Notes under the pieces: model-generated | What the model saw: the letters and a program-made list of their open reading frames with translations, nothing else | Told to the model about the DNA's origin: nothing | The model's database searches: none | Translations under genes and position numbers: made by a program | From: Eledone cirrhosa | Taxonomy: Eukaryota | NCBI GenBank assembly: GCA_964016885.1 | Contig: OZ024740.1 | Location: 141,794,001-141,858,000, forward strand | Reading direction: 5' to 3' | Length of the DNA: 64,000 bases | Shown here: positions 137 to 38,738 of the stretch, in pieces | How positions within the stretch are numbered: position 1 is the first letter of the stretch | Layout: each line of letters opens with the position of its first letter

Positions 137-1261
137 TTCCATATATGGTAAAAGTGATTGTCACAAGGATTGGTCAAAAGTTTGTTGTTGAGACACATAA
201 TTCTATCATGGCATTTTGTGGAAGGAAGGGGTAGATGAACTTGCCAGTAGAAGAGAGAGGGAGAGGGAGTAGAGGAAACCCAGTCGTGCGTTGAAAGTGA
301 CAACTACAGAAGAATCCTAAGGATAAGAGGTCAAGAGAAGTATACTAGAGAGAGGGAGGGGGGAGGAAGGCGAAACAATAAGTAAATCTATATGGAGTAA
401 ATATATAGAAAAATAAGAATGTTAAAAATATAAAAAAAACACAATTTCTGGTTACTATTCCCCTACCACAATCATCAAATCTCTCACTGGTACTGCTAGA
501 CTATAGAAAAGTTTAATAGGTGGGACGGAATACTAAATACTAGATTGTAGTGAAAGAATTTTATGAGTTAGTAGTAATCGGCCAAATCTATCTTACAATG
601 ACAAGTCAACAAGTAGGGGGCCAAAATACTAAAAAAAACTAATACGAAATAATAATTCAGAACCCCGAAACTAATACGAAATATTAATTCAGAATCCCGA
701 AAATGAATGCTAATACGATATATAAGAGTACCGCTACAATACATAAATTCTAATACAAACTACATAAATGCTCGTACGATATATATGAAAAATTTAATAC
801 GAAAAATTAATTCAGAATCCCCCCCCCCCCCCAAAAAAAAATACTAATATACGAGAAACTAAAGCAGAGATACCACTAAGAAATCTAGAAATCACGGAAA
901 TGGGGCAGCAATCAGATAAGAAAGCAAGTATCTGGGGTCTAGCACATCTGCTATAAAAAGCGGAGTCGGCCAATTCTATCATAGAATAGGGGGTGGGGGT
1001 GGGGGTACTGAGGCTACAGAGGACCGAAGGGCTGCCTCGGAGTGGGCGAGAAGGTGAAAAGAACGACGACAAAGAAGGAGAACTGGCGTGGAAGGACTAG
1101 GAAGGGATGGGGGGAAGAAGGAAATATAGAGGAAACGATAAAAAATATATAAGAAAATCTTACGTCTACCTTTGTAAGCAAGGGTTACTCATTACAAAGT
1201 CGGCAAGTGGGGTGTTACAGCCCTTGTCTACCCCCCGGTCATTATGGGGTTTGAGGGCGAG

Positions 1262-1660
1262 GTAAGTCCTACGCAATCTGTGTTTGCATGCAGTTACCAG
1301 TTCGTCTTTCTTGTTTAGGAGTTGGTCCGTCGAAAACAGCATTTGTATTGTTTCCTCTGAGCATAAGTTACCCGGACGGCGTCCTCCCGTGTAAGAGTTG
1401 GCTCTGGACAGTAAGCTCCAAGTGAGATTATAGGTTATATTGTTATCTTTGAGGTCCCAGATGTGGCCCGAAAGTGTAGTGGCGTAACGCCGGACCGGGT
1501 TTCGGAAAGTATGTCTGTGTTGGTATAGCCGGATCTTGAAGTCACACGCGGTTAATCCTATATAAGCTTTGTTGGAGGTTGCACTGGTAGATCACATTAC
1601 TATCTCTGCATCTGTTGTCGAGGGGGAAAATGGATCAAACAGGACAGTTACACCTCCTGG
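1262..1660 (-). pseudogene. Penelope-like (Naiad-type) C-terminal GIY-YIG endonuclease remnant
   Basis: Manual translation with one stop and one frameshift: RRCNCPV*SIFPLDNRCRDSNVIYQC / KAYIGLTACDFKIRLYQHRHTFRNPVRRYATTLSGHIWDLKDNNITYNLTWSLLSRANSYTGGRRPGNLCSEE...LLNKKDELVTACKHR. It shows the VIY-YIG, R, H, LC..E and LNK..E...C.H motifs. Confidence 0.9.
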
Positions 1661-2362
1661 TCGGCTCTCCACTGCTATCTAGGTTATTTCTTCCATAGGG
1701 ATTGAGTTTTTTGTTGTTAGAAGAGACGATGTTTTGTGCAAAGTTAGGTGTGGTGGTGTAGGACAGTTTGATGGTAATTTTGTTGATTATGTTGTGGTAG
1801 CGGATTCTGAATTAATTTTTCGTATTAAATTTTTCATATATATCGTACGAGCATTTATGTAGTTTGTATTAGAATTTATGTATTGTAGCGGTACTCTTAT
1901 ATATCGTATTAGTATTCATTTTCGGGATTCTGAATTAATATTTCGTATTAGTTTCGGGACTCTGAATTATTATTTCGTATTAGTTTGTTTTTAGTATTTT
2001 GGCCCCCTACTTGTTGACTTGTCATTGTAAGATAGATTTGGCCGATTACTACTAATTCATAAAATTATTTCACTACAATCTCGTATTTAGTATTCCGTCC
2101 CACCTATTACACTTTTCTATAGCTTAGCAGTACCAGTGAGAGATTTGATGATTGTGATAGGGGAATAGTAACCAGAAATTGATTCTTCTGTAGTTGTCAC
2201 TTTCAACGCACGACTGGGTTTCCTCCACTCTCTCTCCCTCTTTCTTCTACACGCAAGTTCAGCTACCCCTACCTTCCACAAAATGCCATGATAGAATCAT
2301 GTGTCTCAACAACAAACTTTTGACAAATCCTTGTGACAATCACTTTTACCATATATGGAATT

Positions 2363-2460
2363 ACCCCCTGAGACGCTCGGCTATTCATTTACCAAGATAA
2401 AAAATGTTCATTTAGTCCAGAATTAGCCGTCGAAACGGCTTTAGCTCACCCGTCGGGGTC
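2363..2460 (+). ncRNA. Type I hammerhead ribozyme motif, degenerate core (family A, mirror copy)
   Basis: acccc-CTGAGA...cGAAAC-ggctttagctcacc-cGTC-ggggt. The core box is one nucleotide short. Confidence 0.6.
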
Positions 2461-2490
2461 CTACTCGTTCCTATATATATATATATATAT

Positions 2491-2990
2491 ATTAGAAAGT
2501 GAGGTATTTTACAAAATGAAAAAAAAACGAGGTGTCCCACATGTGTGAACGTATAAGGAAAAACAATGAAATCGAAAATGCAACTGGAGTCCTTTTAAAA
2601 AAAATTATTTGGTTCCTTTACCGGTTTCGCAGTTCTTGTGCTTTTCAAAAGTAGAATTGAGATGGAAGTTTTGTGGTATTTTTTACATCTGGATGAGCAT
2701 TTACTTAAAAACGTGGGCATACAGGCATGTTGTACGTGTGTACATATATCTACATACGTATCTCTCTCTCTCTTTCTCTCTCTCTCTCACTGTGTGTGTG
2801 TGTGCGCGCGTCTGTGTGTGCGCGCGTCTGTGTGTGTGTGTATGTATGTGAGAAAAACCACAAAACCTCCATCTCAATTCTACTTTTGAAAAGCACAAGA
2901 ACTGCGAAACCAGTAAAGGAACCAAATAAATATATTTTTTTAAAGAAAGACTCCATTTGCATTTTCGATTTCTTCTTTTTTCCTTATACA
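2491..2990. mobile_element. HHR-bearing fold-back insert (family B) between (TA)n tracts
   Basis: About 2560-2690 is the reverse complement of about 2845-2990, with a microsatellite spacer. A third copy lies at 4797-5007. Confidence 0.8.
2883..2918 (+). ncRNA. Minimal type I hammerhead, U3/A8 core variant (family B); further copies at 2613-2655(-) and 4934-4971(-)
   Basis: ctt-TTGAAAA-gca(caagaac)tgc-GAAA-cc(a/g)g-TA-aag. The 4934 copy has stem II GCAG/CUGC, stem I CCUU/AAGG and a palindromic CCGG loop III. Confidence 0.75.
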
Positions 2991-3778
2991 TATATATATA
3001 TATATAAACTTAGATGAAGTTATTGCTAGACAACCACACACTTTGGCAAGCAGGCATACATTAGTTTTAAATATACTGCTACATAAATATACATTCTTAT
3101 GCATAGGTCGTTAAAATATACTTTACACAATAAATATTACAGAGATACACACACGTTGAAAACAATGTATGTTTATATTCGATCTTATAAGTGTAACCGG
3201 AAACTTCGACCGGAAAGTATATCTATAATATTAATAGGGTATAGATAATATATAGACGGACACAGAGGCAAATACACAGAGTTACAGACACAGGCCTACA
3301 CACAGAGACACTTATATACATATATATACATAAACATTACACTACATATTGCATATTGTGTGCACATATTGCTATTCATTGATATGACTGAGCTGTGCGC
3401 TCTGTTGCATAAATTAGTATGTGGATTTTTAAAGAATACATGGTGGATGGCTGAAATTCAGGTCTATATATAACATTGCATCATTTGGTTTATTATATAG
3501 TTGGATGCTGTTGTTTATGATTACATTTTACGATTAAATGCTTCATTAATCGAAGTTTGCAACTTGGTGTAATTTTTAGGGTCAATTTGTTAAACAGCTT
3601 GATTGAGTTTTCTACAAATTTCTCTGGTGGATTTTGGTCGATTGATCTACCCACCGTTAATAGAGTGCAATTTATTGTTCATTAAGTTTAAAATATATAA
3701 GCATACTAAATTTGAAATATCGGTGGAGTTTCTGGCTCTCATGCCTACTTTGAAACATTTAGTACTATTTTCTTTGGA

Positions 3779-4462: not shown

Positions 4463-4522
<60 letters not shown>

Positions 4523-4525
<3 letters not shown>

Positions 4526-4774
4526 AACAAGGGAAGAGGAATACTGCGTGGTTGCACATGGGTTAGATATTATAAAATTAGTCCCTCATCAGTGATTTGT
4601 CAACCATCATTGGTATTTCAACGCATTAAAAATCAGATACCTCAGGTTGGTGCGAGCAATAACTAAAATAAGCTATTGGTACAAGTGAATCGCGTAAAGC
4701 GAGTGAGACAAGTAAACAACAAGAAGGAAAAGCAAACCGAAGGTCGGAAAACAGCAAGCAACATGGTTATTCGT

Positions 4775-4775
<1 letters not shown>
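4523..4775 (-). mobile_element. (TA)n-flanked insert (family C), diverged homologue of about 17435-17640(+)
   Basis: The two share the blocks cgcaccaacctgaggtat and tcactgatga.ggact, and both are flanked by TA-rich microsatellite. Confidence 0.55.
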
Positions 4776-4796
<21 letters not shown>

Positions 4797-4805
<9 letters not shown>

Positions 4806-5007
4806 GTGAGTTTTTTTTTACAAAATGAAAAATAACCGAGGTGTCCTAGTGAAAGTATAAAGAAAAAGAGATGAAATCGAAAATGCAACTGGAGTCTTAT
4901 TTAAAAAAAATATATATATATATTTATTTGGTTCCTTTACCGGTTTCGCAGTTCTTCTGCTTTTCAAAAGGTGAGTTGAGATGGAGGGTCTGTGGTTTTT
5001 CTCACAT
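4797..5007 (-). mobile_element. HHR-bearing insert (family B), 3' end in (TA)n
   Basis: Colinear with 2491-2697 and begins with the same (ta)n-ttagaaagtgag junction. Confidence 0.85.
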
Positions 5008-5077
5008 ATATACATGCACACACACATATACCAGACAAACACTCTCACGCACACATATATATATATATTATAGAGAA

Positions 5078-5400
5078 GGCCGGTGGCTTAGTGGTTAGAG
5101 CGTTGGGCTCTCACAATCATGATGCTGGGAGTTCGAGCAAAACCCGTTTCACAAACAGGTTGGGTCTTTGAGCAAAACATTGTATTTCACGTTACTTGCT
5201 CCAGTTCACTCAGCTGTGGAAATGAGTTGCGACGTCATTGATGCCAAACTATATGGACCTTTGCCTTTCCCTTGGATAATATGGCTAGTGTGGAGAGGGG
5301 AGACTGGTATGTATGTGTGACTAATGGTCTTCCACAAAAATATCTTGTTCGGGCTTGTGCTTTGGGGTTTGGAGAGTACAAAACCCATGGTCTTTACCCT
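5078..5400 (+). mobile_element. tRNA-derived SINE with Meta-like core
   Basis: A-box ggtggcttagtggttag, B-box gagttcgag, and core ttgagcaaaac...tgctccagttcactcagctg..gaaatgag. Relatives lie at about 14450-14740, 22303-22385, 43515-43620 and 56130-56400. Confidence 0.8.
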
Positions 5401-5430
5401 ATATATATGTATATATATATATATATATAT

Positions 5431-8331
5431 TGGAATAAATGCTCTGAAATAGCGATATATATGTGAATATAGACATAGAATATTCGAAAATATTCTGTAT
5501 GTTTATAATAAACATTTTGAAGACCTAATCGCTATAGAATAGAATACGTCACGTATTACAATTAGATTCTCGATAAAAGCAAGGGAAGTAAATCTACGCG
5601 TTTCATTCTTATTAGAAATCGTCAGGACCACATATCCAGTGCTTTTATCGAGAATGACACAGCTAGAGACTTATAGAATACTTAGCTGTGTACAGGAACT
5701 GGTTTGAAAGAGCGGTTGCCGGTCCGGCAGAAATTAGAAATTGGAATAAATGCTCTGAAATAGCGATATATATGTGAATATAGACATAGAATATTCGAAA
5801 ATATTCTGTATGTTTATAATAAACATTTTGAAGACCTAATCGCTATAGAATAGAATACGTCACGTATTACAATTAGATTCTCGATAAAAGCAAGGGAAGT
5901 AAATCTACGCGTTTCATTCTTATTAGAAATCGTCAGGACCACATATCCAGTGCTTTTATCGAGAATGACACAGCTAGAGACTTATAGAATACTTAGCTGT
6001 GTACAGGAACTGGTTTGAAAGAGCGGTTGCCGGTCCGGCAGAAATTAGAAATTGGAATAAATGCTCTGAAATAGCGATATATATGTGAATATAGACATAG
6101 AATATTCGAAAATATTCTGTATGTTTATAATAAACATTTTGAAGACCTAATCGCTATAGAATAGAATACGTCACGTATTACAATTAGATTCTCGATAAAA
6201 GCAAGGGAAGTAAATCTACGCGTTTCATTCTTATTAGAAATCGTCAGGACCACATATCCAGTGCTTTTATCGAGAATGACACAGCTAGAGACTTATAGAA
6301 TACTTAGCTGTGTACAGGAACTGGTTTGAAAGAGCGGTTGCCGGTCCGGCAGAAATTAGAAATTGGAATAAATGCTCTGAAATAGCGATATATATGTGAA
6401 TATAGACATAGAATATTCGAAAATATTCTGTATGTTTATAATAAACATTTTGAAGACCTAATCGCTATAGAATAGAATACGTCACGTATTACAATTAGAT
6501 TCTCGATAAAAGCAAGGGAAGTAAATCTACGCGTTTCATTCTTATTAGAAATCGTCAGGACCACATATCCAGTGCTTTTATCGAGAATGACACAGCTAGA
6601 GACTTATAGAATACTTAGCTGTGTACAGGAACTGGTTTGAAAGAGCGGTTGCCGGTCCGGCAGAAATTAGAAATTGGAATAAATGCTCTGAAATAGCGAT
6701 ATATATGTGAATATAGACATAGAATATTCGAAAATATTCTGTATGTTTATAATAAACATTTTGAAGACCTAATCGCTATAGAATAGAATACGTCACGTAT
6801 TACAATTAGATTCTCGATAAAAGCAAGGGAAGTAAATCTACGCGTTTCATTCTTATTAGAAATCGTCAGGACCACATATCCAGTGCTTTTATCGAGAATG
6901 ACACAGCTAGAGACTTATAGAATACTTAGCTGTGTACAGGAACTGGTTTGAAAGAGCGGTTGCCGGTCCGGCAGAAATTAGAAATTGGAATAAATGCTCT
7001 GAAATAGCGATATATATGTGAATATAGACATAGAATATTCGAAAATATTCTGTATGTTTATAATAAACATTTTGAAGACCTAATCGCTATAGAATAGAAT
7101 ACGTCACGTATTACAATTAGATTCTCGATAAAAGCAAGGGAAGTAAATCTACGCGTTTCATTCTTATTAGAAATCGTCAGGACCACATATCCAGTGCTTT
7201 TATCGAGAATGACACAGCTAGAGACTTATAGAATACTTAGCTGTGTACAGGAACTGGTTTGAAAGAGCGGTTGCCGGTCCGGCAGAAATTAGAAATTGGA
7301 ATAAATGCTCTGAAATAGCGATATATATGTGAATATAGACATAGAATATTCGAAAATATTCTGTATGTTTATAATAAACATTTTGAAGACCTAATCGCTA
7401 TAGAATAGAATACGTCACGTATTACAATTAGATTCTCGATAAAAGCAAGGGAAGTAAATCTACGCGTTTCATTCTTATTAGAAATCGTCAGGACCACATA
7501 TCCAGTGCTTTTATCGAGAATGACACAGCTAGAGACTTATAGAATACTTAGCTGTGTACAGGAACTGGTTTGAAAGAGCGGTTGCCGGTCCGGCAGAAAT
7601 TAGAAATTGGAATAAATGCTCTGAAATAGCGATATATATGTGAATCTTCAATGTTTATTATAAACATACAGAATATTTTCGAATATTCTATGTCTATATT
7701 CACATATATATCGCTATTTCAGAGCATTTATTCCAATTTCTAATTTCTGCCGGACCGGCAACCGCTCTTTCAAACCAGTTCCTGTACACAGCTAAGTATT
7801 CTATAAGTCTCTAGCTGTGTCATTCTCGATAAAAGCACTGGATATGTGGTCCTGACGATTTCTAATAAGAATGAAACGCGTAGATTTACTTCCCTTGCTT
7901 TTATCGAGAATCTAATTGTAATACGTGACGTATTCTATTCTATAGCGATTAGGTCTTCAAAATGTTTATTATAAACATACAGAATATTTTCGAATATTCT
8001 ATGTCTATATTCACATATATATCGCTATTTCAGAGCATTTATTCCAATTTCTAATTTCTGCCGGACCGGCAACCGCTCTTTCAAACCAGTTCCTGTACAC
8101 AGCTAAGTATTCTATAAGTCTCTAGCTGTGTCATTCTCGATAAAAGCACTGGATATGTGGTCCTGACGATTTCTAATAAGAATGAAACGCGTAGATTTAC
8201 TTCCCTTGCTTTTATCGAGAATCTAATTGTAATACGTGACGTATTCTATTCTATAGCGATTAGGTCTTCAAAATGTTTATTATAAACATACAGAATATTT
8301 TCGAATATTCTATGTCTATATTCACATATAT
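5431..8331. mobile_element. Retrozyme-like tandem array: 311-bp unit x7.1, then inverted x2.2, flanked by (TA)n
   Basis: Units start at 5431, 5742, 6053, 6364, 6675, 6986, 7297 and 7608. Orientation switches at about 7645. Units look identical, each holds one HHR, and there is no ORF. Confidence 0.92.
7823..7910 (+). ncRNA. Minimal type I hammerhead of the 311-bp unit; also 8134-8221(+) and seven minus copies at 5567-5654 + 311n
   Basis: ggtc-CTGACGA-tttct(aata)agaat-GAAA-cgcg-TA-gatt, enclosed by a perfect 15-bp helix ttctcgataaaagca/tgcttttatcgagaa. Loop III is the palindrome ACGCGU. Confidence 0.88.
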
Positions 8332-8335
8332 ATAT

Positions 8336-8436
<101 letters not shown>

Positions 8437-8644
8437 TGAGAGTGAGAGAGAGGGAAACTGTGTGTGAAAGACAGATAGATACCACCATAGTAACTAACTA
8501 CACAGCAAGTGACGCTTTCCCACCGATACTCCAAGTTATATGCCAACCGTTGTTGCCGGTTTACGTGTTCGTTACTAGAGACACCTTTGGTGAACTGAAA
8601 CGTTTAGTGTTCGGAAAAAGTGTGTATCTATGTGTGTGTGTGTA

Positions 8645-8726
<82 letters not shown>

Positions 8727-8915
8727 TGTGAGTGTATATGTGGGCTTTAGTATATGTGTGTGAGTTCATGTGCGACTGTATGTATGTTTACTTTTATGTT
8801 TATGTATATAAAATTATTCGTACACACATTCATAGACTTAGATGCCTATATATACACAAATGTGTTTGTATTAAATTATATACAGATGAATTCACAGTGT
8901 GTGTGTGTATGTGTG

Positions 8916-8980
<65 letters not shown>

Positions 8981-9877
8981 AAAAGCGGGGCACAGACAAA
9001 TACACAACAGAGATTGCAATATTGATAAAGCAATGTGGGAGAAGAGAAAGCAAAGAGGAGAGACCAACATAGTAATCCAATTACCAAACTCGATATATCT
9101 AAATTATATAATCCTTTTGTGAAAGAAGAGAAATATCTGATGATAAAAATAGGCAAGGAGGAGAGTCCTGCTGGCAGAATCACGTGTTTGATCTCTATTA
9201 AGACCATTCACCAGCTGCCACGTAGCTGAAGACCGAAACACTATTTATCTTGGTTTAGATTTAGAATGTTTACTGGAATGGAATGGACATCCATCGGTTT
9301 CGATGATGATTTTTAAAGTCATTCGTTCAATGGAACAGCCGGTTCGTGAAATTAACGTTAAAATAGCTGAACATTCCACAAACATGTTCACCCGTAACGT
9401 AGTTCTCAGTGACATTCAATGTGATACAGGGTATGGGAACACAGACCCTTTGACTTACAGGTATGATTCATTTTTTCTTCGACTGGAGTAACGCGAAATA
9501 AAGTGTCTTGCTCAAGATCCACTCCATTCAACAGACTTCCAAAACCTTTCCCTCTCATGGCTTGTGTCAAACCGAGGCTATGGCAAATGACGCTTCAGCA
9601 ATATGCCACACTGATCTATCATTAAAAGTATTTCATCTGCTATCGTCCGGTTTTTTTTTTAGATATCATGTTGTTGTGTGTATCCTACTTTATTTAAGAC
9701 GACATGGTATGATACAAGGTGGATTTAGTTGCTATTTCTACCAGATCTAGCAGCCGTATAAAGTCGCACTCGTTGACACGTAAACTGTTAAATGTTCTCA
9801 TTAAGTCTTAAGTTCGCCTTGATCTAGCAAACCTGAAGTCAAAGGCTTTCCAGCCGTAACAATCCTATTTTTTGTTT

Positions 9878-12082: not shown

Positions 12083-12613
12083 TTTTGAGTATATGTTGGT
12101 TGTATACCAGCACCTTAGTATGCAGGCTGGAGCACTCGACGAAGTGCGCAGGTTGGTTTGGTTACTCCGGAGTAATGTAAAATAAAGTTAAATAAAAAGT
12201 CAAATGTTTAAAATTTAGCTTCGTTTATTACTGCTATATATATTTCAGTGACAGCCATCTTTGGCTGTGACCTCTTCAGGCAGTCCGAATTAGTATGGTA
12301 TAGACAAGTACATATGTTGTTGAGGTGTATAATATTGTCATTACTCTGATATGCCCAGTTCATGGTTGGGTTGTTATTTCACTGAGGAACTGGAATCATA
12401 TGATTCCAGTTCCTCAGTGAAATAACAACCAACCAGGAACTGGGCATATCAGAGTAATGACAATATTATACACCTCAACAACATATGTACTTGTCTATAC
12501 CATACTAATTCGGACTGCCTGAAGAGGTCACAGCCAAAGATGGCTGTCACTGAAATATATATAGCAGTAATAAACGAAGCTAAATTTTAAACATTTGACT
12601 TTTTATTTAACTT

Positions 12614-24395: not shown

Positions 24396-24842
24396 ACGAT
24401 ATATTAACAAATGGAAACTATATTTATAAAACCATATTTATTTCATTATACATATTTCAAGGACACCAAGTTAAATTATGGTGTGCTTTCATCAGATAAA
24501 ATATAATATAGATCAGTTTTATAAATAAATATTGACATACCCTTAAAGAATGCGACCATTTCTATTGGAAGCTCCCGGATAGTCAACAGAAATGGTCGCA
24601 TTCTTTATGGGTATGTCAATATTTACTTATAAAACTGATCTATATTATATTTTATCTGATGAAAGCACACCATAATTTAACATGGTGTCCTTGAAATATG
24701 TATAATGAAATAAATATGGTTTTATAAATATAGTTTCCATTTGTTAATATATCGTTTTTACTCCAATAATTTGTTGAGTGGTTTATATCAGTTATAAAAA
24801 TATTTGCTTGTTGTATCCCAACAATTTAAATATAACTTCTAC
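24396..24842. mobile_element. Palindromic HHR insert in TA-rich site
   Basis: Arms 24396-24567 and 24584-24755 with a spacer of about 16 bp. The right arm has about 85 bp of extra tail. Confidence 0.92.
24648..24712 (+). ncRNA. Minimal type I hammerhead; mirror copy about 24439-24503(-)
   Basis: tattttat-CTGATGA-aagcacaccat(aatttaac)atggtgtcctt-GAAA-tatgta-TA-atgaaata, with an 8-bp stem I. Confidence 0.9.
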
Positions 24843-25526: not shown

Positions 25527-25864
25527 TAACCAAAAGTTTATATGGTTCGTTGATTATTCAACAATTCAATTTTACAATAGATTAGAAGCACTCGACAGTG
25601 TTATCTGGAGTATCCATAATATTATTCAAAATATTAATAAATGAGAAATATTATCATAACCAAAGTATATATTTTATTATACCTATTTCGCTACAGGAAT
25701 TGAAGATTCAAGACCTTAGCCGTATGTCGCATATCCAATCTCTTATATATTTTATCTGATGAAAACGTACTGAAACACCATTGTACCTTTGAAATATGTA
25801 TAATACAATATATACTTTGGTTATGATAATATTTCTCATTTATTAATATTTTGAATAATATTAT
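25527..25864. mobile_element. Fold-back HHR insert in (TA)n
   Basis: 25616-25689 is inverted relative to 25791-25864. The left arm stops at the ribozyme GAAA box. Confidence 0.88.
25747..25811 (+). ncRNA. Minimal type I hammerhead related to the 24648 motif
   Basis: atattttat-CTGATGA-aaacgtac...gtaccttt-GAAA-tatgta-TA-atacaatat. Confidence 0.82.
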
Positions 25865-34618: not shown

Positions 34619-35160
34619 AGAGAGTGAGAGGCAGAGAGAGAGAGGGAGATAGGAGGAGGGGGCATTGGTAGAGAAAATGTGTATATATATATTAAACGGG
34701 GAGATATGTGGCAATGTTAGTTGGAAGGGGAGTATATTACTCCGGTGACACAGATCTTGTAGGATGTGGACGCTGCTTGTGTGTGAAGCTACAAACCAGT
34801 ATTTTAAATGTATTGATCTTTCAGTCTATATAATATAGACTGGCTCTATACAGTAATGTTCACTGATAGGGCTGGCAACTGTGGTGTTGGTATAACTATA
34901 GTAATGGTGTTGATGGTTGTAGTAGTGGTGGTAGTTAGGTGGTCGTATGTCGTTTGGTGAGGTGTTGGTAGTGGTTGTATTGTTGGTTGGTAGTGATAGT
35001 TGTAATTGTGGTATTGGTGGTGTTGGTGTTACTGGAGGTGGTGATTATTAGTGGTGTTGGCAGTGTGGGTGAATGTGGTGAGGTGTTGGTAGTGGTTGTA
35101 TTGTTGTTGTACTGTTGGTTGGTGAAGTTGGTTTTAATTGCGGTATTGGTGGTGTTGTTG

Positions 35161-37172
35161 GTGGTGTAAGTGGAGGTGTTAGTGGTGGTGACTGTTGTTA
35201 GATGATGATGGTGGTGTAAGTGGTGGTGATAGTGGTGGTGACTGTTGTTAGATGATGATGGTGGTGTAAGTGGAGGTGTTAGTGGTGGTGACTGTTGTTA
35301 GATGATGATGGTGGTGTAAGTGGAGGTGTTAGTGGTGGTGACTGTTGTTAGATGATGATGGTGGTGTAAGTGGTGGTGATAGTGGTGGTGACTGTTGTTA
35401 GATGATGATGGTGATGTAAGTGGAGGTGTTAGTGGTGGTGACTGTTGTTAGATGATGATGGTGGTGTAAGTGGAGGTGTTAGTGGTGGTGACTGTTGTTA
35501 GATGATGATGGTGGTGTAAGTGGAGGTGTTAGTGGTGGTGACTGTTGTTAGATGATGATGGTGGTGTAAGTGGTGGTGTTAGTGGTGGTGACTGTTGTTA
35601 GATGATGATGGTGGTGTAAGTGGAGGTGTTAGTGGTGGTGACTGTTGTTAGATGATGATGGTGGTGTAAGTGGAGGTGTTAGTGGTGGTGACTGTTGTTA
35701 GATGATGATGGTGGTGTAAGTGGTGGTGTTAGTGGTGGTGACTGTTGTTAGATGATGATGGTGGTGTAAGTGGTGGTGTTAGTGGTGGTGACTGTTGTTA
35801 GATGTTGTTGGTGGTGTAAGTGGAGGTGTTAGTGGTGGTGACTGTTGTTAGATGATGATGGTGGTGTAAGTGGTGGTGTTAGTGGTGGTGACTGTTGTTA
35901 GATGATGATGGTGGTGTAAGTGGAGGTGTTAGTGGTGGTGACTGTTGTTAGATGATGATGGTGGTGTAAGTGGTGGTGTTAGTGGTGGTGACTGTTGTTA
36001 GATGATGATGGTGGTGTAAGTGGAGGTGTTAGTGGTGGTGACTGTTGTTAGATGATGATGGTGGTGTAAGTGGTGGTGTTAGTGGTGGTAACTGTTGTTA
36101 GATGATGATGGTGGTGTAAGTGGAGGTGTTAGTGGTGGTGACTGTTGTTAGATGTTGTTGGTGGTGTAAGTGGAGGTGTTAGTGGTGGTGACTGTTGTTA
36201 GATGATGATGGTGGTGTAAGTGGTGGTGTTAGTGGTGGTGACTGTTGTTAGATGATGATGGTGGTGTAAGTGGAGGTGTTAGTGGTGGTGACTGTTGTTA
36301 GATGATGATGGTGGTGTAAGTGGTGGTGTTAGTGGTGGTGACTGTTGTTAGATGATGATGGTGGTGTAAGTGGAGGTGTTAGTGGTGGTGACTGTTGTTA
36401 GATGATGATGGTGGTGTAAGTGGTGGTGTTAGTGGTGGTGACTGTTGTTAGATGATGATGGTGGTGTAAGTGGTGGTGTTAGTGGTGGTGACTGTTGTTA
36501 GATGATGATGGTGGTGTAAGTGGTGGTGTTAGTGGTGGTGACTGTTGTTAGATGATGATGGTGGTGTAAGTGGTGGTGTTAGTGGTGGTGACTGTTGTTA
36601 GATGATGATGGTGGTGTAAGTGGTGGTGTTAGTGGTGGTGACTGTTGTTAGATGATGATGGTGGTGTAAGTGGAGGTGTTAGTGGTGGTGACTGTTGTTA
36701 GATGATGATGGTGGTGTAAGTGGTGGTGTTAGTGGTGGTGACTGTTGTTAGATGATGATGGTGGTGTAAGTGGTGGTGTTAGTGGTGGTGACTGTTGTTA
36801 GATGATGATGGTGGTGTAAGTGGTGGTGTTAGTGGTGGTGACTGTTGTTAGATGATGATGGTGGTGTAAGTGGTGGTGTTAGTGGTGGTGACTGTTGTTA
36901 GATGATGATGGTGGTGTAAGTGGTGGTGTTAGTGGTGGTGACTGTTGTTAGATGATGATGGTGGTGTAAGTGGTGGTGTTAGTGGTGGTGACTGTTGTTA
37001 GATGATGATGGTGGTGTAAGTGGTGGTGTTAGTGGTGGTGACTGTTGTTAGATGATGATGGTGGTGTAAGTGGTGGTGTTAGTGGTGGTGACTGTTGTTA
37101 GATGATGATGGTGGTGTAAGTGGTGGTGTTAGTGGTGGTGACTGTTGTTAGATGATGATGGTGGTGTAAGTG
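35161..37172. repeat. 50-bp minisatellite, about 40 copies, embedded in (GGT/GTT)n-like low complexity (about 34880-37580)
   Basis: Unit gtggtgtaagtgg(t/a)ggtgttagtggtggtgactgttgttagatgatgatg. Confidence 0.97.
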
Positions 37173-38738
37173 GTGTTGGTCTTGGCATAGTGGTGGTGAT
37201 GTTGTTGATAGTGATGCTGTTAGTGTTGGTGGTTATATTACTGTTAGTGTTGTTGGTCTTGGCATAGTGGTGGTGATGTTGTTGATAGTGATGCTGTTAG
37301 TGTTGGTGGTTGTGCTGTTGGTCTAAGTGCTGCTGGTTGTTTATAATATTGGTCCCAGTGTTGTTGTTAGTCGTGGCGGGGGTTGTGTTGTTGGTGCTAC
37401 TGGAAGCTAGTGGGGTGATTATGTGGTTGGTATTTGTGTTTATGGTTGTGTTTATTATTGTGTTTATGGTCGTTGTTAGTGATAACGGTTATATTGGTGA
37501 TAGTTGAGTTGTTAGTGGTGATGATCGGTTTATTGGTGGTTGTGTTTGTGAAGGAGTAGTAGCAGTAGCAGCAACAGTAGTAATCAATAGCATTCCATCC
37601 GTGGCCATCTTTATTTTTCTCAAGTGGGAAAACCAGGAACATATCCAATGTGCCGTTTGCACACATAGTACTGTGAGAATCAAGGGAAGTTTGGCTACCA
37701 TTTCTACCATGTTGAACTAAAAGGCTACGGAAGCCGTTTCTTACTGTTAAACCGGGTTAAGGTTAAAGTCTACCATCCAAGTAGGCCACAGCGGTACTTG
37801 AATTCAGAAAGAAAAGAACCTTCGGCCCGATGCTCTAACGATTCCTCCAGTCAAGTACTTTATTTAACCGACCATGGAAAGATGAAAGTCTATGTTGACC
37901 TGGTGTCACTCGGAAGACAAGGAGATGGAAAGAATACCACAAGGCATCCGGTCTGACACTAACTCTCCTGCCAGTTTTCTACTACAAGTATTAGTGACAG
38001 TTGTAGAATTAGCGGAGTTGGAGATAATGGTCTTAGATGTGTAATGTTAATTGTGCATGTGGATGTAGAACCGGCGCAGAGCTATTTAGTGCCCTACGCT
38101 AGCTTTACAATATATGACCTATTCTCTCAGACAAAATAATTTTAACATATACTTTGGTAAGCAGATAAACTTAATTTTAGACATTTCTTTTGTTCTGACC
38201 ACATTAATAAAATTCCAAACCTGCATTTTCGACACTCACCCACGTCAAATCATGTTACTATAAGTTGAAACTATAATTTGGAATCATATTCCATGTCACA
38301 ACATCACACGATCCTTTCATCTAAGTTGGGATATTTCCACAGCACTGCTACTTGACAAGTATATTTCAGGATTTATATATTTATCGCAGGAAATTATATA
38401 TTTAATTCAATTATACAAATATATATAAAAACTGCAGTCCTTTAAGGTTCAGTAGTGCGACATTAACGCCAAATAGGCAGCCGCCTAGTTGGCGTTACTA
38501 GTAGCGCCGGTCCTGTGTGGTTGATAACATTAAAAGTAATGAAAACATAAGTTGTATGTATTAGGGTGGTGTTAATGACACTGAACGGCTGCGTTAGTGG
38601 TATTACCGGAATTAAATTATTTATTCGTAAACAGTGTATACATTATAATTCTATACATTTATTCCACATCATTGCAGATACATTTTTGTATATGCATGTA
38701 TAGATGCACATATATAGCTTCAGACATTCCCATATATG

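Follow-up and report, generated by a model that had tools for sequence, protein, structure and literature searches.

How does a perfectly repeated, non-coding hammerhead unit come to lie in two opposed orientations between (TA)n runs in the genome of Eledone cirrhosa? The locus sits in a 64,000-nucleotide stretch of DNA that was analysed as a whole, hereafter the window. An exact 311-nt period ran over positions 5429–7645 (2,217 nt, 7.13 units), hammerhead-sense on the minus strand, and over 7650–8333 (684 nt, 2.20 units), sense on the plus strand, and sequence identity among all full window units was 100%. The first-pass annotation of this DNA had described 7.1 units followed by 2.2 inverted ones, (TA)n on both flanks and no ORF, and all three points held: the identical units stand head-to-head, the array abuts (TA)n at both sides, and the longest ATG ORF within the unit (GC 0.34) is 30 aa and was rejected as coding because its frame is not maintained in sister families. 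It had also located the array correctly, with ends at 5431 and 8331 that fall 2 nt inside the actual 5429 and 8333 because the array overlaps its flanks. The arms are opposed such that the hammerhead-strand 5′ ends meet inside and both 3′ ends point outward; the plus arm begins at ~7645, where 1 nt of microhomology and the loss of 2 nt from an A run mark the junction, and a target duplication is not resolvable at this locus. Unit numbering starts at the nucleotide that follows the predicted cut (window 7883 = 1); the two outer-end sites described below are called A and B.

5400–5430, no strand: left (TA)n target flank, in which a target duplication of 12–15 bp would be masked
5429–7645, minus strand: arm 1, 7.13 identical 311-nt units, outer end at site B (unit position 166)
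7645–7652, no strand: head-to-head junction, unit position 127 joined to ~72, not a fold-back palindrome
7645–8333, plus strand: arm 2, 2.2 units, outer end at site A (unit position 131–140), merging into TA
7883–8193, plus strand: monomer from predicted cut to predicted cut (predicted 311-nt circle)
8326–8396, no strand: right (TA)n target flank

Nine hammerhead cores (CTGACGA..GAAACGCGTA) are present in the window array, as listed here with the helix that encloses them.

7846–7889, plus strand: type I hammerhead motif, example copy, predicted cut after 7882
7846–7851 with 7883–7889, plus strand: stem I of this copy, which further comprises the core at 7852–7858, stem II, GAAA and the palindromic helix III ACGCGT
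8163–8193, plus strand, and seven on the minus strand from 5595–5625 to 7461–7491: remaining cores
7822–7837 with 7896–7911, plus strand: 16-bp helix closing the hammerhead domain, with compensatory changes in sister families

Each unit has the type I core of what had been annotated as a minimal hammerhead, but helix III is of the short palindromic type seen in canonical metazoan type I hammerheads, as distinct from the helix-III-less ‘minimal’ motif (PMC4209133). The closing helix measured 16 bp rather than the 15 bp first given, and the three further hairpins named at the same time all occur in the predicted fold of the monomer, which was more stable than its shuffles (z = −3.5). The window variant looks weak, with U.U at the base of stem II and a stem I that contains two G.U pairs and a bulge. 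When the hammerhead was checked with covariance models, as the annotation had proposed, an Rfam scan of 4500–9500 returned no hammerhead family at E ≤ 1; its 12 hits were to 11 miRNA models and one snoRNA model, all under the gathering score. A match to a curated model bears on detection and is no part of what defines a retrozyme. Across 11 monomers, 8 of 12 hammerhead pairs were altered on both sides, including a change from C3-G8 to U3-A8, a known natural hammerhead variant (PMC4209133). The covariation score was reached by 0 of 500 shuffles (slid controls ≤0.13 vs. 0.55) in a set of 11 related sequences, six of them from one family, whose relatedness inflates the shuffle test. This pattern of substitution supports structural constraint on the hammerhead. 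U.U at the stem II base is also present in the active axolotl retrozyme hammerhead HHR_Amex2 (PMC7229834), and only one of nine predicted retrozyme dimers cleaved in vitro in bioRxiv 2026.07.22.740005. By eye, TATA-like and initiator-like motifs lie upstream of the closing helix.

The unit belongs to a large and dispersed family. A DNA search covering 40 of 229 candidates gave at least 558 matches to the unit in the genome, and two disjoint core patterns gave 13,969 and 4,133 matches, the latter with unrelated motifs in 2 of the first 100 matches listed, against 0 for reversed-pattern controls. The family thus amounts to ~18,000 units or 5.6 Mb, in arrays on many contigs, with an estimated 2,000–3,000 arrays based on the 6–9 units per locus among the matches listed. 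Minor alleles numbered 47 per 160 kb of array sequence, or ~3 × 10−4 per base with RT and assembly errors included, and the insertions are therefore very recent. Both the dispersal and the recent insertion proposed for this array are borne out by these counts, and the single-locus ordinary satellite that had been named as the opposing outcome does not hold for a family dispersed in thousands of copies. More generally, an ordinary satellite, with few long head-to-tail blocks and arbitrary ends, is contradicted by many short two-armed arrays, fixed ends and target duplications.

The unit was also present in 20 of 24 listed sequencing runs, from 18 organisms in 17 studies; no RNA run was among those listed with the unit, which is neutral as to expression. 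Four of the 20 unit-bearing runs were examined: in one of them (X1) the summed unit depth was ~4 × 10^5, and in the three others (X2, X4 and X15) there was one circular 310-nt contig each, at depth 10–26 and with no flanks, together with sequence from an unrelated PLE family of this genome, namely its most abundant portion, at depth ~3–18. Horizontal transfer is not supported by the four runs examined out of 20, since the low-depth unit and the unrelated PLE in three of them fit trace DNA of the source organism or a relative.

Several features by which retrozymes are recognised are found here: hammerhead units of ~170–400 nt that are non-coding with GC below 50%, no apparent LTR structure (the array abuts (TA)n directly), dispersal, and target duplications longer than 4 bp. 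Metazoan non-LTR retrozymes, as described in the main texts of PMC7229834 and bioRxiv 2026.07.22.740005, resemble the family in tandem units of ~310 nt, a type I hammerhead with short palindromic helix III, low GC, absence of coding capacity, dispersal, long target duplications and the occurrence of Penelope-like elements (PLEs) in the same genome. They differ in that published retrozymes are direct tandem arrays, whereas those studied here are mostly two-armed and gave no matching pLTR in the PLE loci and families examined. We consider it very probable that the family is a retrozyme. On the grounds of shared hammerheads, co-occurrence and similar pLTRs, the same papers propose mobilisation by PLEs. 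A term search of an Octopus vulgaris repeat survey (PMC13282606) gave no mention of retrozymes or ribozymes.

To characterize the form of the insertions we read 61 arrays, of which 17 were selected by identity, 27 in chromosome order and 17 via a variant or by chance. The great majority (52 of 61) were two-armed, all of them head-to-head, with 8 one-armed and 1 cut by a gap; the chromosome-order set alone gave 22 two-armed, 4 one-armed and 1 with a gap. Priming from both sides of a cut (TA)n, as suggested for the window array at first reading, agrees with this prevalence. The outer ends fell at two sites in the unit, next to a pair of hairpins:

7962–8000 (unit positions 80–118), plus strand: two hairpins immediately 5′ of site A, maintained in sister families through compensatory changes
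8009–8022 (unit positions 127–140), plus strand: site A, one of two outer-end sites of arrays
8037–8057 (unit positions 155–175, mode 166), plus strand: site B, the other outer-end site

All 49 scorable two-armed arrays had one A and one B outer end and none had A/A or B/B, an outcome with a chance of ~2 × 10−15 if each end chose freely 50:50; the three unscorable arrays were L131 (gap), L228 (end absent from the sequence read) and L213 (ambiguous). The A and B ends were mostly 26–40 nt apart. Dispersed arrays with permuted ends had been anticipated, and the arrays are indeed dispersed, but their outer ends are fixed at A and B rather than freely permuted. Arm lengths were uncorrelated (ρ = 0.11), with the A arm the longer in 20 of 48 arrays, and arms reached at least 25 perfect units (L228). 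Where flanks were informative, target duplications were 12, 14 and 15 bp (L083, L122 and L226). Outer ends match the TA target over one to several nucleotides, and site A overlaps an AU-rich run able to pair with it. Other TA-rich spots in the unit were unused as outer ends, and insertions in non-TA targets (L083 and L226) used sites A and B all the same; target homology alone does not yield one A and one B end. We infer that site A is a start site for the RT, with the two hairpins 5′ of it as a candidate RT-recognition element; the A–B interval corresponds to the PLE ‘tail’. One single arm (L080:4393-4678; n = 1) runs from site A through almost one turn to approximately site B, as if blocked by a second primer.

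Sister families are ~70–80% identical to the unit, and a core held in common gave 8,074 matches in the genome. Of these sister retrozyme families, at least three that are older and have units of 313–316 nt have the region around sites A and B in common; their loci include L123, L127, L128, L132 and parts of L183–L212 and L229–L258, two or three of the families having the U3-A8 core, and the sister array L127 shows the one-A-one-B form as well. Another hammerhead family (L103, L106, L115, L121, L138 and L148), with U.U at stem II and a palindromic helix III, has a hairpin followed by a TA-like end site.

Sequence variants were then used as markers of the template. There were 28 haplotypes among 51 arrays (sum p² = 0.062), and both arms matched in 47 of 47 arrays having a diagnostic site on both arms; arm differences occurred in three arrays and were all single-unit changes. 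Within 160 kb, 102 non-consensus sites were fixed in all units of their array, and minor alleles were present once in 44 cases, twice in 3 and more often in none. The allele 36G>T occurred in one unit of 7 multi-unit arrays and in all units of 7 others, never between, and on several backgrounds. That a new variant reaches every unit of both arms requires a one-unit bottleneck followed by repeated copying, as a circle provides. The 311-nt circular template proposed in the first-pass annotation is, on the genomic side, in keeping with this: variants lie in one or two units or in all, as a monomer bottleneck predicts. Because both rare alleles tested were common to several loci rather than private, the matches establish a common haplotype for the two arms and do not by themselves prove a single molecule.

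The arrays share their insertion signature with endonuclease-positive PLEs. Such elements, as described in PMC3846280, PMC8557442 and PMC11167929, have a head-to-head inverted arm, a tail at one end, duplications of ~8–15 bp, AT-rich or microsatellite targets and a hammerhead upstream of the start sites; in PMC3846280 and PMC8557442 the inverted copy is 5′-truncated and the tail is 30–40 bp and found at one end only. Unlike PLEs, the retrozyme arrays have no ORF, and their arms are long perfect concatemers of one short unit. PLE inversions were read as antisense self-priming or fold-back in PMC3846280, and the origin of the inversion and one-sided tail is called unexplained in PMC8557442; the three papers leave that origin open (antisense self-priming, endonuclease resolution) and do not pair each end with one start site. 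The anole PLE protein (element PAc) cuts and extends both strands and is a predicted dimer; it starts at two internal sites bounding the tail, independently of homology, with the start site equal between strands in vitro (PMC11167929).

Autonomous PLEs of this genome followed the same end rule, in 13 of 13 inverted pairs. In a family with 11,108 hammerhead-core matches and an RT/GIY-YIG-like ORF, one long and one short end were found in 9 of 9 inverted pairs, of which those several kb apart may not all be single insertions, and a second family gave 4 of 4. The inverted pairs of both families were mostly in (TA)n, and their ORFs resemble RT/GIY-YIG clusters. A partner for the retrozyme was sought: a PLE ORF adjoined the retrozyme core in 0 of 30 core-bearing loci, and the core was absent from the three PLE families inspected in a genome that has many more, namely the family of L080 (30 of 103 scored loci read), one with a similar stem II and one in which stems I and III are similar. 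For the L080 PLE pieces, the sole Pfam hit, to DUF7863, lay below threshold. The retrozyme unit itself encodes no RT and GIY-YIG endonuclease.

Four readings compete with copying of both arms from one circle. The arms might have come, by PLE-type integration, from two separate RNAs of one dominant source locus, one per RT subunit, and the rare alleles that are lineage-shared rather than private, the independence of arm lengths and the fact that a single active source per cell would give matching arms too are all compatible with this. It is nonetheless unlikely: equivalent molecules give no reason for strict one-A-one-B ends in 49 of 49 arrays, and a pure pool would be needed 47 times in 47 amid 28 haplotypes in 51 arrays, a strong demand. 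A linear template, whether an uncut multimeric array transcript or a cut monomer on which the RT jumped precisely from end to end time after time, would be in line with uncut RNA being the main substrate of the anole PLE (PMC11167929) and with the occasional template slips seen in L032, L040 and L041. A linear multimer would transmit variants as mosaics and shorten the arrays, whereas variants were in one or two units or fixed, and for ~500 passes of the cut site the variant tables list no errors specific to the junction, nor do 5′ ends accumulate at that point, which makes such a template quite unlikely. We judge it very unlikely that the arrays are tail fragments of an autonomous PLE with a tandem pseudo-LTR, in spite of the PLE-like signature, or that inserted monomers were amplified locally by unequal crossover, a model discussed in the main text of bioRxiv 2026.07.22.740005. 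No ORF adjoins any of the 61 arrays, arms extend to the 25 or more perfect units of L228, and the contigs of run X1 showed no measurable share leaving the unit for unlike sequence, a weak point in that contigs end wherever the assembly branches. Amplification in place would need to have affected the two arms at thousands of loci that have diverged by only ~3 × 10−4.

The remaining reading, in which the inversion arose by fold-back self-priming of one cDNA or of an antisense template, or as an assembly chimera, is extremely improbable in light of the inner junctions. The 102 inner 5′ ends were evenly distributed over the unit (KS p = 0.43), and the cut site was not enriched for them (3 of 102, 6.6 expected). 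Most junctions overlapped by 0–6 nt, and some had a short insertion. Near-palindromic junctions, with two ends within 15 nt, would favour fold-back, as would the junctions of L078 and L226, which run exactly through a 16-nt self-complementary helix, but the number of near-palindromic junctions (5 of 51) equalled the chance expectation of 4.9. Fold-back predicts mirror arms of similar length with the same outer end, and lengths were uncorrelated and ends always differed. An assembly chimera, which the annotation had named as a danger to its own reading, fails on the flip occurring in 52 of 61 arrays and on junctions that differ among independent loci, and for this retrozyme family fold-back and chimera are already contradicted. 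With inner 5′ ends evenly spread and the two ends of a junction no closer than chance, the junctions fit two independently made cDNA ends joined together.

Taken together, we think it probable that the window array is a very young copy of a non-LTR retrozyme, for which a PLE RT-endonuclease acting in trans primed both cut ends on one predicted 311-nt circle. For its components, we hold with high confidence that PLE machinery was the integrating machinery, a circular template is likely, and a single RNA molecule serving both arms is fairly likely. Array transcripts would be cleaved by their hammerheads, probably as dimers through the ACGCGU palindrome, and the monomers ligated into circles. A PLE protein, probably a dimer, would bind the hairpins beside site A and nick both target strands ~12–15 nt apart in (TA)n, whereupon one target 3′ end would start at A and the other at B. 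Each RT would then copy its way around the circle, completing as many as 25 turns or more, and the two cDNA ends would be joined, mostly by short microhomology. Several observations stand against this explanation. The loci and families examined yielded no autonomous PLE whose terminal repeat matches, Rfam gave no hammerhead, window stems I and II are weak and 8 of 61 arrays are one-armed; the ends are homologous to the TA target, unlike the homology-independent starts of PMC11167929.

Extended to the elements themselves, these results incline us to the view that PLEs integrate mainly by coordinated twin priming, with one complex, a single RNA and one start site per chromosome end. If so, twin priming would account in one step for the inverted copy, the tail at one end and the pair of start sites, and retrozyme arrays would be double rolling-circle products, the first direct genomic record of PLE machinery copying animal retrozyme circles. 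In LINE-1 twin priming, two target ends prime on the RNA, and the product is an antisense arm joined to a sense arm at a microhomology junction; such events are a minority, with a linear poly(A) RNA and a variable internal second site. By contrast, most insertions here follow the two-armed route, neither site varies and each arm is longer than the template. Retrozymes and the PLE signature are each known, and in the literature searched the inversion with tail, known for PLEs, was reported for no retrozyme. The inverted two-arm form, fixed end sites and twin priming were not found in the main texts of PMC7229834, PMC7761336 and bioRxiv 2026.07.22.740005, and no report was found of two-armed retrozyme arrays, one start per end or PLE twin priming, of which subscription papers or supplements may hold one.

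The mechanism by which animal retrozymes move has so far been a hypothesis (main texts of PMC7229834 and of bioRxiv 2026.07.22.740005, where it “remains to be elucidated”). Where synthesis started, which template was used and how many turns were made are all preserved in thousands of near-identical insertions, and retrozyme movement and the PLE inversion and tail can both be read from one genome because the template is endless and variant-marked. The ability to extend both cut ends with multi-kilobase concatemers of a small circle would also make such an enzyme relevant to RNA-templated genome writing.

Further observations concern autonomous PLEs of the genome and the rest of the window. Short inverted copies of the PLE with 11,108 core matches join via self-complementary stem I letters at L141, L148, L165 and L168, and at L141 the inverted arm ends, by eye, at the predicted hammerhead cut site. 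Contig joints in runs X1 and X15 step back 78 nt inside an autonomous PLE hammerhead (L175:495-573), which suggests a 78-nt tandem unit and possibly a very small retrozyme arising from a PLE end. Two copies of a PLE ORF that are 100% identical and lie 14 kb from each other, oppositely oriented (G000:C1:30691923 and 30705510), suggest a recent inverted duplication or an assembly effect. In the repeat directly left of the array, at 4934–4973 on the minus strand, there is a hammerhead-like motif whose core is U3-A8 and whose helix III is palindromic; the same motif gave 13 matches in 10 of the loci examined. A stretch at ~5068–5340 looks tRNA-like and SINE-like by eye; within the window, ARAGORN detected no tRNA gene. 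Pieces of the end of a PLE-like ORF lie at 1247–1802 (minus strand). More hammerhead-core matches occur at 12229–12279 (minus) with 12519–12569 (plus) and at 24447–24495 (minus) with 24656–24704 (plus), and others at 25756, 26557, 33852, 48150, 59323, 59754, 61834 and 63640; these further cores, some in head-to-head pairs, are probably ends of several PLE-type families. At 35159–37175, a 50-bp unit is repeated 40 times at 98% identity, with a strong skew of G over C.
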